Positions 3,144-35,386 of a stretch of 64,000 nt of DNA are shown one piece after another (within the stretch, counting starts at the first letter, position 1; each line of letters begins with the position of its first letter). The position numbers and the translations under genes were made by a program. Source of the DNA: a virus; IMG/VR virus record IMGVR_UViG_3300028585_000003, positions 3,302 through 67,301 of that record; one strand, 5' to 3'. The notes below the pieces were generated by a model. That model searched no databases. It had not been told where the DNA came from and saw only the letters and a list, made by a program, of their open reading frames with translations.

Positions 3144-3686
3144 ATGCAATACAACGAAATTCGCGACCAGATCGAAACCGGCGACCTGATTTCGGTGCGC
3201 TCGGGAGACAGCATCCTGAATCGCGCAACTAAGTTTTTCACCGGGCCATATATCCATTCCGGGCAGGCTTTCTGGATAGGCGGCCGCCTGTGGGTGACAG
3301 AGCTGAACGGTGGCCGCAATCACGCGATCCCCCTGTCCCAGTTGGATGGTCTGGAGTTCGACGTGCATGCGCGCCCGGACGGCATCACGGCCGAAGCGTG
3401 CGAGCTGGCGATTCTGGACAACCTGGGCCGCAAGGTCGAATACGGCTACCCTGCCCTGCTGGCAATCGGGCTAGTCGAATGGCTCAAGCTGAACGTGGTC
3501 GTGAAGTGGAGCAAAATTCTCGTTTGCTCGGGCTATGCGGTGAAAAATTGGCAGGACGCCGGTTGGAAGGGTGCCGCGAGCCGGGTCATTTCTCCGACCA
3601 AACTCGCGGGGATGGTGCGCTTCAAATTCCCGGTGACGGTGCCGCCACCGGGAAAGATCATTCCGGCTTGTAGTGTGCCTGGATGA
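3144..3686 (+). CDS. Permuted papain-like (YiiX/YebB-like NlpC/P60) amidase/peptidase
   Basis: GDLISVRSG...YIHSG (His first) and late LVCSGYA (Cys) arrangement; purine-rich RBS before ATG 3144. Confidence 0.55.
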   Translation: MQYNEIRDQIETGDLISVRSGDSILNRATKFFTGPYIHSGQAFWIGGRLWVTELNGGRNHAIPLSQLDGLEFDVHARPDGITAEACELAILDNLGRKVEYGYPALLAIGLVEWLKLNVVVKWSKILVCSGYAVKNWQDAGWKGAASRVISPTKLAGMVRFKFPVTVPPPGKIIPACSVPG

Positions 3687-3984
3687 GCTTTTGAATATAG
3701 GGCAGTAGTGCCGCGTCCATGACCTTCTGCAAGGACTTGTGGCCCGGCACGTTTTCCGTGATCCACTCCATTTGCGCGTGGACTTGCTTACTGTGCTTCC
3801 AGTTCAAGAGCGTGAACACGTCGGCCGGTGCGCCCTCCCAAGGCGCGACGATGCGCGGCGGCGTAAGGTCGAGCTGGGCCTGGGTGCCGGGTGCGCCGGT
3901 ACGCAGTTGCAGGCCACCGCCATTGACCGGCACAAGGTCGGACGGGCTGAACGTAAAGCCGGGCCTGAGTGCTAATTTTTCCAT
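3658..3984 (-). CDS. Small protein, possible C-terminal ribbon-helix-helix; last gene of stb-like operon
   Basis: FTLLNWK-SKQVHAQMEWI-KSLQKVMDAALL pattern; same strand as stb genes. Confidence 0.4.
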   Translation of the reverse strand: MEKLALRPGFTFSPSDLVPVNGGGLQLRTGAPGTQAQLDLTPPRIVAPWEGAPADVFTLLNWKHSKQVHAQMEWITENVPGHKSLQKVMDAALLPYIQKLIQAHYKPE

Positions 3985-4002
3985 TTTGAATTCCTCGATC
4001 TG

Positions 4003-4221
4003 TTAATGCGGGCCGAGAAAGAACACGACGATAGCACCGCCCGCCAAGCCGCCCAGGAGGGCCGCCACGGCGACAACGGCTGCAACCCGGTACGTGCGCC
4101 GCATTTCGGCTTTGGCGGCCGCCTCGACGCGCTGGTGCAGCGCCGTGATGGCTTCGTGCAGCGCTCCAACGTCGCCGAGCAGCTCGGCGATCAGTGCATC
4201 CAAGGCGGTTGAGCTTCGCAT
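4003..4221 (-). CDS. StbC/TraM-like small protein with C-terminal transmembrane helix
   Basis: LDALIAELLGDV N-terminus, hydrophobic C-terminus, third position after stbA/stbB-like genes. Confidence 0.45.
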   Translation of the reverse strand: MRSSTALDALIAELLGDVGALHEAITALHQRVEAAAKAEMRRTYRVAAVVAVAALLGGLAGGAIVVFFLGPH

Positions 4222-4229
4222 CGCCCGCC

Positions 4230-4937
4230 TTACTTCGTCAGCGCCTTGAAGGCCGCGTCCAGCTCGTCAACGATCCCGCTGGCGAGGCGCTTGATACTGA
4301 GCAGGCCGTTCAAGCGAATCTTTTCCTCGACGTTATCTTTCGGCGTTGCGTTCGCCAGCGCCTTGTAGTCGGTCTGGTCCTCGATTGCGCCACGAATCGT
4401 AATGTCCTTCCCGGCGATGAGCGGGTACAGCTCGCTTTCGTGCATGACCGCCTTCGGGTTCAGGATGAAACTCTTGTCGGCCTCCTGCATCGCGAACAGG
4501 CCAGCAAAGACCGTTTCCGGGCGCTCGTCCACCGGGACCATGTTCATCAGCACGCGGATTTTCTTCGCCGGGACGCCGATTTCGCGCAGCGCTTCGATGG
4601 TGGAAATCGTATCACGCTGCTGCTTTTTGATGGGCGTGGTCGGGATGATGAACAGGTCGAAATCCTCATGGCTACCCTTGTATTGCTTCATCTGCAAAAT
4701 CAGGGTTTCGACGTTCGACGCGCCAATGTCCACGATGACGTTATCCATCAGCGACATTGCCTCGATAATATGGCCGAATTGCTTGCCTTTTACGTGGCCG
4801 TCGGTCTGGTCGTCCGAATTGATGGTTTCGACCGCAATAATGTCGCAGTCGCCCATGCGCGGTTGAAGCAGATGTTTGGAAACGGTGGACTTGCCGACGT
4901 TGCCCGAAAAGTTAATCACTGCGACTTTCAATGCCAT
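4230..4937 (-). CDS. stbB: StbB/TraL-like ParA-family ATPase
   Basis: KVAVINFSGNVGKST deviant Walker A, VIVDIGASN Walker B; matches remembered plasmid StbB family. Confidence 0.75.
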   Translation of the reverse strand: MALKVAVINFSGNVGKSTVSKHLLQPRMGDCDIIAVETINSDDQTDGHVKGKQFGHIIEAMSLMDNVIVDIGASNVETLILQMKQYKGSHEDFDLFIIPTTPIKKQQRDTISTIEALREIGVPAKKIRVLMNMVPVDERPETVFAGLFAMQEADKSFILNPKAVMHESELYPLIAGKDITIRGAIEDQTDYKALANATPKDNVEEKIRLNGLLSIKRLASGIVDELDAAFKALTK

Positions 4938-4939
4938 GT

Positions 4940-5374
4940 TTATTTCCTATCAGTTTTTTTAATAAGCGGGTTTCTAGCGGCTCCAATAAACCTATCGGCC
5001 TTTTCTTCCCGTCGCCTTCTCGATTCCTCCAAGTCGAAATTCTCGACCTGGACGTTTGCCCTTGGCTCGGGGCTACTCCCCTCCCCTATCGGCCCGTCGG
5101 TAACTGGCTTGGCATTCGGCCTTGCTGGCGCTGGCTTTGCGATCTTGTTCTTTCCATGCCGCACCCGCCAAAGCATTGACGAATACGCGCTCATTTTCAG
5201 ATCAAAACCGCTCCTGTTAAGCGCCTCTAATATGTGCTCATGCCCTACCCCGGCCTCTTGTAGCGCCTCGATTTCGGGCAGAACCATGCGTAGCCGAGCT
5301 GCCTTCTTCGTTACCTTCGAGCTGTCGTTCGCCAGGGCGCGTAGTGCTGCAACCGCATCCTGTATGTCATCCAT
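4940..5374 (-). CDS. stbA: StbA/TraK-like plasmid DNA-binding stability protein
   Basis: KAARLRMVLPEIEALQEAGV-HILEALNRSGF-SMLWRVR pattern; first gene upstream of stbB-like ATPase. Confidence 0.6.
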   Translation of the reverse strand: MDDIQDAVAALRALANDSSKVTKKAARLRMVLPEIEALQEAGVGHEHILEALNRSGFDLKMSAYSSMLWRVRHGKNKIAKPAPARPNAKPVTDGPIGEGSSPEPRANVQVENFDLEESRRRREEKADRFIGAARNPLIKKTDRK

Positions 5375-5407
5375 AGCACGACTGCCCTTTCCTCTACTGG
5401 ATGGTCA

Positions 5408-5436
5408 ATTGTGTAAGTTTCCACAAAAGTAGTCAA
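5408..5436 (-). promoter_or_regulatory. sigma70 promoter of stb operon
   Basis: TTGACT-17-CACAAT on minus strand. Confidence 0.6.
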
Positions 5437-5514
5437 GAAAATATAGTTATATTTTAAGACAAAACGAAAGATTACGAGAAAAACCGAAAGAAAATGTAAG
5501 TTTTTTGTAAGTTT
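5412..5514. repeat. Three TGTAAGTTT direct repeats (5412, 5495, 5506); candidate StbA binding/centromere sites
   Basis: Exact 9-mers, one overlapping the stb promoter -10/spacer. Confidence 0.5.
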
Positions 5515-5658
5515 TTGCGAGTGTTTTGCTAGGTCTTGCTGACGCCTGGGCAGCTTTGCGCCGCGCTAACCTGTCGCCTCCTGACCAGATCAGACCTGTT
5601 GACGCGACCCGCGCCGGGAAGCCCGCGCAACGGTGGCCGGGCGGCGGTAGCCAGTACC

Positions 5659-5782
5659 GAAAACCGAATTCGGCGATCAGAAAACCGAATTTGCGTTTAA
5701 ATCGAAAATCGGTGGTAATCTTGCGGATTAGAGTGGGAAGTTAATAAGAAAATATATTATATTATATAGTTTCATACATTAA
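5659..5782. repeat. Iteron-like repeats GAAAACCGAATT (5659, 5680; degenerate 5704) plus AT-rich tract; ori-like
   Basis: Two exact 12-mers 21 bp apart followed by AATAAGAAAATATATTATATTATATAG. Confidence 0.4.
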
Positions 5783-5852
5783 CTCAGCGGCCGAAGTCGG
5801 CGCGGCGCGCGGCGCGGCGAATATAGCGCCGCGATTGGTATGGTAGGAAATT

Positions 5853-5886
5853 GAGCAAGGCAATTCTGTTTGAAAGTGCCTTGCTC
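5853..5886. repeat. Perfect 10-bp inverted repeat GAGCAAGGCA-N14-TGCCTTGCTC
   Basis: Read directly; just past the end of the leftward recombination operon. Confidence 0.6.
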
Positions 5887-5894
5887 GAATCAGG

Positions 5895-6086
5895 TTAGGC
5901 TGATTTAGGAGGGGAGGGCTGGCATTTATTCGAGCAGTAGCCATTAGCGCGCCAGGACAGCCAATTAACCGCTAGGAATATCGACCGGCACGATTTGCAA
6001 CACACGCAAGGCGTACCGCCAACATAGGGAGCAACCGCCGCAATAACTGGCGCGGCGGCAGGCTCGTCAAATAGGCTGAATTGCAT
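5895..6086 (-). CDS. Small Cys-rich hypothetical protein
   Basis: CVCCKSC and CSNKC motifs; overlaps upstream ORF in operon. Confidence 0.5.
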   Translation of the reverse strand: MQFSLFDEPAAAPVIAAVAPYVGGTPCVCCKSCRSIFLAVNWLSWRANGYCSNKCQPSPPKSA

Positions 6087-27981: not shown

Positions 27982-28575
27982 TTAAACAGGGACCGGCGAG
28001 GGGCGCGCGCCCTTGATGCGCAGGATGGTTTGCCGGGACACGCGCATATCGCGCGCGATTTCGGAGATTCCCACGCCCGCATCCAGCAGGCCGTGGACAA
28101 GCTGCTTGTCGTTGTCGCCCAGCGCTGGCGGGCGGCCGAACTTCTTTCCCTCTTTCTTCGCGCGGGCAAGGCCAGCATTGGTGCGCTCGATGAGTAAGTC
28201 CCGCTCGAACTCGGCCACGGCCGCGATAACGCCCATGGTCATCTTGCCTGCGGCGCTGGTCAGGTCTATGTTGCCCAAGGCGAGGCAGGACACGCGCACG
28301 CCGGATGCTTCCAGGCGCTCGACGGTGGCGCGCAAGTCCATCGCGTTGCGGCCCAGGCGGTCCAGCTTAGTCACCACAAGCACGTCATCGCGCTCCAGGC
28401 GGTCGAGCAGCTTGACGAAGCCGGGGCGCTCGTTCGCGGCGCTGGACCCGCTGATAGTCTCGGTGATGATGCGGCGCTCGTCCAGGGCGAAGCCTGCGGC
28501 CTTGATTTCGCCGATCTGGTTGTCGGTGGTCTGGTCGCCGGTCGATACGCGGCAGTAGGCAAATACTCGGCTCAT
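27982..28575 (-). CDS. Small serine recombinase (PinR/PinQ-like resolvase/invertase)
   Basis: YCRVST catalytic Ser, [25 protein letters not shown]-terminal HTH. Confidence 0.92.
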
Positions 28576-34480: not shown

Positions 34481-34849
34481 TTAGAACAGGGACATTTGCG
34501 GCGGTGATGCCGCTGGGGCTTGCGGAGCGGCCGCAGGCGGCGATTTCTCGGGCTTCGCGCCGGATTGGTAGCGCTCATGCAGTCGAAGCACCGTAGCGGC
34601 CATCCCGGCAATCCATGGGTCTTTCGGCAGGTGCATCCCGGTCGAGCCGTCCCAGTCGAAAAACTCCCGGTCGTAGAACGGCACGCGCTCCGGGTGCTGC
34701 TGCTGTAGTGTCACCAGCTCGTCGGCCCAGCGCTGCCAAGTGGCGTCGCTGACAATCGGGTTATCGAGCTGGTAGTACAGGTAGGAGTGGACGGCGAGCT
34801 GCTGGCGGCGCTGCCTGATACGCGCGGCGATACTCTGCGCGGCCGCCAT
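34481..34849 (-). CDS. Stand-alone NAD-dependent ligase domain Ia-like protein
   Basis: HSYLYYQLDNPIVSDATWQRW...QQHPE aligns with LigA [21 protein letters not shown]...TKHPE; no adenylation domain. Confidence 0.75.
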   Translation of the reverse strand: MAAAQSIAARIRQRRQQLAVHSYLYYQLDNPIVSDATWQRWADELVTLQQQHPERVPFYDREFFDWDGSTGMHLPKDPWIAGMAATVLRLHERYQSGAKPEKSPPAAAPQAPAASPPQMSLF

Positions 34850-35037
34850 CAGCCCACCCTTCCAGTGAAAACAACAGGGTTCGTCTCGCGCTCGGCCGCG
34901 TGCATCCAGAACAACTCATGTTCGAGGGCGTGGACGCGGTTCTTGAGCGTCGCGTTTTCCTTGGCGCTGGCGGCCAGCTCGCGCGCCAGCTCGACGGGCG
35001 TGCGGTACTTGAGCAGGTATTCGGCGAGCGTCATCAT
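34849..35037 (-). CDS. Small coiled-coil protein
   Basis: Overlap coupling. Confidence 0.5.
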   Translation of the reverse strand: MMTLAEYLLKYRTPVELARELAASAKENATLKNRVHALEHELFWMHAAERETNPVVFTGRVG

Positions 35038-35336
35038 TTCTGTGCCTCCGCCGCTTCCAGCTCGGCCAGCAGCTCGCGGCCCTTGCGTGTGATGTAGCGG
35101 CCGTCCAAATCTTGCGCGGCCAGCTCGCGCTTTTCCAGCGCGCGGGTGAACCGGCCAGCGGCAAGGGCGATGCCCTGCGGCGATGGGTGGCGCTTGCGCC
35201 CCTCTTTCTCTCCCGCGAACAAGGCATAGCCCAGGCCGGACAGGTAGGGGTAAGGGCCGTTGTCGCGCAGCAGCTCCAACGCCTTGCGTTCGTACTCGGA
35301 CAGGCTCTTGTCGGCCTGGAGTGATGCGTTACTCAT
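35034..35336 (-). CDS. Small wHTH-like protein
   Basis: FTRALEKRELA...YITRKGRELL. Confidence 0.5.
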   Translation of the reverse strand: MSNASLQADKSLSEYERKALELLRDNGPYPYLSGLGYALFAGEKEGRKRHPSPQGIALAAGRFTRALEKRELAAQDLDGRYITRKGRELLAELEAAEAQK

Positions 35337-35386
35337 GTGTCAGTTATCCGTCAATTTTTGTCAGTAAAATGTAAGTTTTCCGCAAG

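Follow-up and report, generated by a model that had tools for sequence, protein, structure and literature searches.

The virus record IMGVR_UViG_3300028585_000003 of IMG/VR carries an operon that the literature describes on conjugative and mobilisable plasmids only: stbABC of the R388 type, here in a P1-like phage-plasmid and followed by a gene for a ribbon-helix-helix (RHH) protein. We analysed a window of 64,000 nucleotides, bases 3302–67301 of this single 91,370-bp record; positions are those of the window. The stb module appears to have been captured, together with its cis-acting sites, from a conjugative plasmid, and probably serves as the segregation or stability cassette of the plasmid-prophage. 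Four co-directional genes on the minus strand form the leftward operon (3658–5374). These genes and the sites that accompany them are as follows.

4940–5374, minus strand: stbA, helix-turn-helix (HTH) DNA-binding protein of 144 amino acids (aa), from the match to PDB 7PC1 and the alignment to plasmid StbAs
4230–4937, minus strand: stbB, ATPase of the ParA/MinD superfamily, StbB family, 235 aa (NCBIfam NF041292)
4003–4221, minus strand: stbC, shortened, 72 aa, with a C-terminal membrane helix, from the alignment with StbCs of R388 and TrfA-type plasmids
3658–3984, minus strand: fourth gene (orf4), RHH protein of 108 aa, from a structure model and profile relatives
5408–5436, minus strand: stbA promoter from a promoter scan, with −35 TTGACT (5436–5431), a 17-bp spacer and −10 CACAAT (5413–5408)
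5495–5530, minus strand: distal direct-repeat array, a candidate stbS-like centromere or operator, with two exact AAACTTACA boxes and then degenerate copies
35370–35378, minus strand: remote AAACTTACA box, upstream of a leftward operon that starts at 35336

The StbB protein scores 279.9 bits against the NCBIfam StbB profile (cut-off 200) over residues 4–233 of 235, and is 48.5% identical to R388 StbB. Its deviant Walker A motif (FSGNVGKST, residues 10–18) fits the form SGxxGK[ST] described for the R388 group (Guynet et al. 2011, PMC3098194), and F10, S11, G12, N13, G15, K16 and T18 are invariant in 37 homologues. In StbA, an N-terminal domain (approximately residues 1–75) and a C-terminal tail (RRREEKADRFIG..NPLIKK) are conserved, and the linker between them is variable. 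Residues 20–73 match residues 16–68 of PDB 7PC1, which is R388 StbA 1–75 (phmmer, E = 1.5e-8), and the alignment with plasmid StbAs extends from end to end of the protein and takes in the tail (RRREEKA.RFI..NPLIK) that the authors of the R388 work proposed to contact StbB. Against NCBIfam StbA_2 it reaches 22.3 bits (E = 1.5e-4) and misses the equivalog cut-off of 100 bits; judged by these scores, it is a family-level relative and not an equivalog of the subgroup that StbA_2 models. StbC retains the N-terminal motif ALIAELLGDVGALH (ALIAELLGDVG.LH) and the C-terminal membrane helix, lacks the central region of plasmid StbCs and matches the NCBIfam StbC profile at E = 0.08 only; the gene is present in all of the phage relatives described below. 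Searches of Pfam and PHROGs gave no match for StbA, StbC or the fourth protein.

The fourth protein has an RHH domain at approximately residues 55–108 and a conserved N-terminal motif, KLALRPGFTFSPSDLVP. An AlphaFold2 (AF2) model built from a 53-sequence alignment has a predicted local distance difference test (pLDDT) score of 85, with values of 86–98 over residues 41–108; an earlier model from 12 close sequences was poor (pLDDT 58). When the model was compared with 48,161 chains using VIA-align, the 50 best matches were all RHH proteins, including omega, pCXC100 ParB and ParG (root-mean-square deviation of 1.2–3 Å over 43–55 residues), with Z scores of 6.0–3.6 that are modest because the domain is small. 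Foldseek found nothing significant in the PDB, and a profile search of PDB sequences returned chance matches only. We rejected the armadillo-repeat matches of a single-sequence search, which came from spurious summed scores. An exhaustive profile search recovered 69 relatives of the protein; the alignment gave no match in 185,579 species genomes.

All four genes are under purifying selection, with ratios of nonsynonymous to synonymous substitution rates (dN/dS) of 0.14–0.54 across the operon, 0.15–0.28 for stbA and 0.14–0.37 for stbB. The initial annotation of the window had read the four products as a StbA-like protein, a StbB-like ATPase, a small transmembrane protein and an RHH-like protein, in a leftward operon of the R388 stbABC type on a P1-like phage-plasmid. 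Profile, structure–sequence, alignment and tree evidence bears this out, and the N-terminal motif and membrane helix make the third protein StbC. The ATPase does not cluster with ordinary ParA proteins, the outcome that the annotation had named as telling against it: it lies above the StbB cut-off, has no AAA_31 match and is nested among StbBs of conjugative plasmids.

The box that reads AAACTTACA on the operon strand (TGTAAGTTT on the given strand) occurs at 5412–5420, 5495–5503, 5506–5514 and 35370–35378; three repeats over the operon promoter and a fourth at 35370 had been noticed at the outset, and our coordinates are one base below those then implied. These four copies compare with 0.06 expected, and no shuffle got to four. 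The whole 91-kb genome has no further exact copies, and all four are intergenic and on one strand. The first box lies between the −35 and −10 elements of the stbA promoter, as a candidate operator, and this architecture of promoter and spacer box is identical in all phage relatives and in contig L016, the nearest relative among conjugative plasmids. The two exact distal boxes lie around 130 bp upstream at a distance of 11 bp, made up of 9 bp of box and 2 bp of spacer; degenerate copies continue at the same 11-bp phase. In all seven related loci the promoter box is conserved and the distal block ACAAAAAACTTACATT is invariant; the most divergent locus has AAACTAACA. Cognate sites of the StbA family are direct repeats of 9 bp, spaced by 2 bp, at the stb promoter (stbDRs), and such repeats are found here; the recognisable copies are about three phased distal ones (two exact) and one or two proximal ones, compared with two sets of five in R388 stbS.

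The remote box precedes an operon of a 100-aa gene (35034–35336, minus strand), a 62-aa gene and a stand-alone gene for LigA domain Ia (34481–34849; Nlig-Ia, E = 4e-31), and resembles the extra StbA-regulated promoters of R388. The 100-aa gene, which is without a Pfam match, is conserved in the IMG/VR relative G001, and the box again lies upstream of the homologous gene there, although the flanking intergenic DNA has diverged. A second repeat, CCGAATTCGGTTTTC, occurs as two copies 21 bp apart (5655–5695), approximately 280 bp upstream of stbA, each with the 10-bp palindrome CCGAATTCGG. This pair is unique in the 91-kb genome. Loci L010, L011, L012 and L022 retain it, L028 in part, and candidate binders are the ParB-like protein described below and the RHH protein.

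At least seven metagenomic relatives of the phage have the operon in the same place, with StbBs that are 62–89% identical. They share a gene order of repressor, RecT, RdgC, ParB-like gene, gap, stbA, stbB, stbC and RHH gene, beyond which lie convergent structural genes. In the tree, StbBs of the phages group in a single clade (support of 98 in the Shimodaira–Hasegawa-like approximate likelihood ratio test, SH-aLRT) that is nested among StbBs of contigs with TrfA, a MOBP-type relaxase and VirB4. The nearest sequences outside this clade (58–66% identity) are from the betaproteobacterial plasmid contigs L016–L018 and the Sulfuriferula sp. AH1 plasmid NZ_CP021139.1. StbB homologues occur in 1509 PLSDB plasmids; 1358 of these are conjugative or mobilisable, 1242 of them conjugative. 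By contrast, tblastn found no StbB in 50,697 deposited phage records, the PHROG families include none, and a single-protein scan of IMG/VR with StbB gave no match. The label ‘stbB’ in D6-like prophages is probably the name of an unrelated ParM/ParR system, since tblastn shows no StbB in the phage collection.

Eight further IMG/VR virus loci (L033–L040; records G002–G008) have StbB homologues that are 31–48% identical, four with a recognisable stbA, and none of the eight gave a match to a relaxase or VirB4. An HK97 capsid gene is present in G006 and a tape-measure gene in G007; G003 spans 94.7 kb and has terminal repeats. The stb module may also occur in other phage-like elements; several of these records are ‘provirus’ calls and could include flanking DNA.

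Sister elements have a partition cassette of the ParA type where this lineage has stbABC. In the same slot, the Burkholderia vietnamiensis plasmid pBVIE05 (CP000621.1) encodes ParA, a 165-aa RHH protein and a 114-aa RHH protein of the orf4 type (homologous to our fourth protein; hhalign, 95%), followed by a Rep3 initiator. Contig L026 has ParA and an RHH homologue there, and its nucleotide similarity to the window stops just after the ParB-like gene. RHH genes of the orf4 family lie directly downstream of a small parA in three of the three contexts examined (L025, L026 and L027) and also in pBVIE05, unlike here, where the neighbours of the fourth gene are stbB and stbC. StbB was not found in the nearest sequenced phage-plasmids. 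Because the sisters pBVIE05 and L026 have ParA plus RHH in this slot, and the fourth gene corresponds to the retained RHH gene, the operon is best read as a chimera, and orf4 as a leftover of a ParA-type cassette, a point absent from the initial annotation. The cis sites would have arrived together with the genes, because L016 has the same promoter and spacer box and a phased array.

In the simplest history, an ancestor of the lineage would have captured a complete stb module (phased 9-bp boxes, stbA, stbB and stbC) once, from a betaproteobacterial conjugative plasmid of the TrfA/MOBP type. The incoming stbS–stbABC would have replaced parA and the first RHH gene of a type-Ib-like partition cassette, and would now precede the second RHH gene, which stayed. 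The par cassettes of pBVIE05 (L009, 37900–39412) and of the RepL-linked contig L025 encode ParA and two paralogous RHH proteins, one with an N-terminal AEAKRARELEARR motif and the other with the orf4-type motif KLxLKPxFxFxPxDF. Such a three-gene type-Ib cassette seems to be undescribed.

The record is classed by IMG/VR as having direct terminal repeats and is 100% complete according to CheckV. A BplA homologue ties the element to P1, pBVIE05 and Xanthomonas phage Rb1, and its relatives also include Pseudomonas plasmids. Other genes encode a CI-type repressor, lambda O/P-like replication proteins and a RecT/RdgC operon. Virion genes are combined with the lack of any match to a tyrosine integrase in the whole 91-kb genome, as in P1-like phage-plasmids; by gene content, the element is a complete 91-kb phage-plasmid of this type (a myovirus), for which we infer plasmid life and extrachromosomal maintenance. 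Two further genes bear on this assignment and on partition.

27982–28575, minus strand: serine recombinase (Resolvase plus HTH_7) of 197 aa, the sole recombinase found in the genome
6293–7222, minus strand: orphan ParB-like protein (HTH_ParB; PHROG 1033, E = 3e-59), last large gene of the RecT/exonuclease/RdgC–FtsK-gamma operon

The recombinase is, by its size, of the Cin/resolvase type and not an integrase. The genome gave no match to an AAA_31-type ParA, its sole CbiA match is the P-loop of StbB (14.8 bits), and no ParM was found; the pairing of an AAA_31/CbiA ParA with an adjacent ParB that defines type Ia ParABS is thus not seen in the element. The ParB-like gene is kept in Stb-type and ParA-type sister elements and in pBVIE05, which places it outside the swapped module. 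Between the ParB-like operon and the stb boxes (5740–5895 and 5895–6086, minus strand) lie an AT-rich stretch (5740–5780), a GC-rich hairpin region, a strong inverted repeat (GCAAGGCA...TGCCTTGC) and a possible Cys-rich open reading frame of 63 aa. A terminator, an origin or a small gene could account for this gap region (5740–6086).

The results establish the homologies, cis sites, synteny, single origin and purifying selection; DNA binding, repression, a partition function and any partner of StbB are inferred. StbA would bind cooperatively to the AAACTTACA boxes, along one face of the DNA, and thereby repress its own promoter and the remote operon. The complex of StbA and boxes would hold the copies of the plasmid in position over the nucleoid, which is what StbA and stbS achieve in R388, and StbB and the RHH protein would modulate or drive plasmid positioning. 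Such StbA-type maintenance is plausible, because the stbDR-like boxes are conserved, the operon occupies the parA slot of the sisters and no other partition ATPase was found. StbB would have to act outside conjugation, since it is the sole ParA-class ATPase and is conserved although no conjugation genes were found. Its partner could be the StbA tail or the RHH protein, the N-terminal motif of which is common to ParA-linked homologues and the StbB-linked lineage.

Several observations weigh against a role of the module in segregation. The array is short, and in R388 promoters with only two or three stbDRs confer no stability. The part played by StbB is unexplained, as StbB is dispensable for stability in R388 and is required there for conjugation when StbA is present. 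Several relatives share the second conserved repeat, the two copies of CCGAATTCGGTTTTC, without an assigned binder, and the orphan ParB-like gene 900 bp upstream could serve another maintenance route. Alternatively, StbA could be only a phage gene regulator, acting on its own operon and on the one that starts at 35336, while maintenance relies on copy number, Xer/dif resolution and other genes and stbB, stbC and orf4 have unrelated roles. In favour of this reading, the boxes are few and all at promoters, StbA of R388 acts in addition as a global repressor of genes in the leading region, and the remote box is conserved. However, the operon sits exactly in the par-cassette slot of sister elements, a low-copy prophage of 91 kb needs to be partitioned actively and no second system turned up, and the distal phased array is not part of the core promoter; we consider regulation as the sole role decidedly unlikely. 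The real partition pair could instead be StbB and the retained RHH protein, as a type-Ib-like ATPase and a ParG-like centromere binder, with StbB in place of ParA and StbA mainly a transcriptional regulator. The family of the RHH protein directly follows a small ParA in all of the contexts given above, its N-terminal motif, shared with ParA-linked members, does not vary in the StbB-linked lineage, the genome has no ParA-class ATPase other than StbB, and both stbB and orf4 are under purifying selection. Against such a pair, stbC separates stbB from orf4, the orf4 type in three-gene cassettes is the second RHH paralogue and not the one that overlaps parA, no centromere has been identified for the RHH protein, and StbB has no known partition role in R388. 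We regard it as unlikely. A broader proposal, in which StbB acts independently of conjugation and took the place of ParA as the ATPase that drives positioning in a hybrid partition machine with the StbA tail, the ParG-like RHH protein or both, is tentative and on balance doubtful. If it were true, parts of Stb and type-Ib Par systems would be interchangeable and StbB of the R388 type would be a genuine partition motor that has gone unrecognised so far.

The operon could also be kept for horizontal transfer, with StbA and StbB making the plasmid prophage ready for mobilisation by a co-resident conjugative plasmid, as the initial annotation had suggested. The requirement for StbB in R388 conjugation and the predominance of conjugative or mobilisable elements among PLSDB carriers (1358 of 1509) favour this, and mob genes or oriT (origin of transfer) are known from the literature in just two P1-like phage-plasmids. 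The search of the rest of the element for a relaxase that had been proposed was run: none of the families Relaxase, TrwC and MobA_MobL had a match in the 91-kb genome, the MOBV, MOBH, MOBC and MOBT families being outside the search. For oriT, similarity to the stb-upstream regions of R388, L016–L018 and the Sulfuriferula plasmid, together with nic consensus strings (of which the R388 nic sequence alone was confirmed, in L019), produced chance-level matches inside genes only. Beyond the promoter and boxes, the region upstream of stbA is unlike that of the plasmid relatives. In L016–L018, conserved palindromes (for example, AGCGTGTACACGCT) lie further upstream of the stbA arrays and may be the oriT of these plasmids or another site; the phage has not acquired them. 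The usual setting of the StbB family, a leading region beside oriT and relaxase, is thus not found here, and this is a contextual rather than a molecular feature of the family. The nearest sequenced phage-plasmid relative is, moreover, typed as non-mobilizable. Mobilisation therefore finds no support in these results, and retention of the operon for transfer is very unlikely.

Stb is the least understood of plasmid segregation systems: StbA has no known motor, and StbB is known for a phenotype in conjugation only. In the present case purifying selection has kept the entire module, including its cis sites, in the ParA slot across a diversified lineage of tailed phage-plasmids without recognisable conjugation genes. 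The retention of the module in these phage-plasmids is therefore a natural experiment on the roles of StbB and StbC apart from conjugation. It is also a clear case of a partition-module swap from conjugative plasmid to phage-plasmid, with a chimeric operon as the outcome. Partition of phage-plasmids has been described in the literature as the work of Par systems, and, as StbB is missing from the deposited phage records and PHROGs searched above, current phage-plasmid typing would miss the cassette as a partition system. The system itself is a variant of the known Stb system, of value above all as a natural setting in which to test StbB function.

The closest well-studied counterpart is stbABC with stbS and its stbDRs in R388 (IncW) (Guynet et al. 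2011, PMC3098194; Quebre et al. 2022, 10.1101/2022.04.29.490116). Shared with R388 are the order stbA–stbB–stbC with stbA and stbB overlapping or abutting, a StbA HTH N-domain that aligns to 7PC1, the SGxxGK[T/S] Walker A motif of StbB, the N-terminal motif and membrane helix of StbC, and direct repeats of 9 bp in one orientation, separated by 2 bp, over the operon promoter, with extra copies at another promoter. Unlike R388, the element has no oriT, relaxase or type IV secretion system (T4SS) found nearby or elsewhere, its box is AAACTTACA rather than TTGCATCAT, its array has about three plus two copies rather than five plus five, its StbC is without the central part, a fourth RHH gene has been added, and the host element is a tailed phage. 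In plasmid contig L016, −35 TTGACT and −10 CACAAT recur with the AAACTTACA box in the spacer between them, and a phased array lies upstream. Unlike the phage, L016–L018 and the Sulfuriferula plasmid have longer arrays, full-length StbCs (171–174 aa), no RHH gene of the orf4 type, and relaxase, T4SS and TrfA genes as neighbours. Upstream of stbA, L016–L018 have 11-bp-phased arrays of five or six short boxes (xCAACA, ATACAACA and GATTACA), with ATACAACA and GATTACA making up those of L017 and L018.

Type Ib cassettes, which pair a ParA with an RHH protein, include TP228 ParF/ParG, pSM19035 delta/omega and pCXC100 ParA/ParB. The operon shares with the ParA and RHH cassette of pBVIE05 and L026 its slot downstream of the RdgC and ParB-like genes, and the fourth protein resembles type Ib RHH partners in having a variable N-terminal tail and a C-terminal RHH domain and is homologous to the pBVIE05 and L025 genes. 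Unlike in type Ib cassettes, the ParA gene is gone and stbA–stbB–stbC stand in its place. The textbook partition system of phage-plasmids is the type Ia ParA–ParB–parS of P1. The proteins of the stb operon are unrelated to it, and the element has no AAA_31 ParA, no identified parS and, as its sole ParB-like protein, an orphan in a recombination operon; yet the presumed job is the same, in a P1-like plasmid prophage that forms virions.

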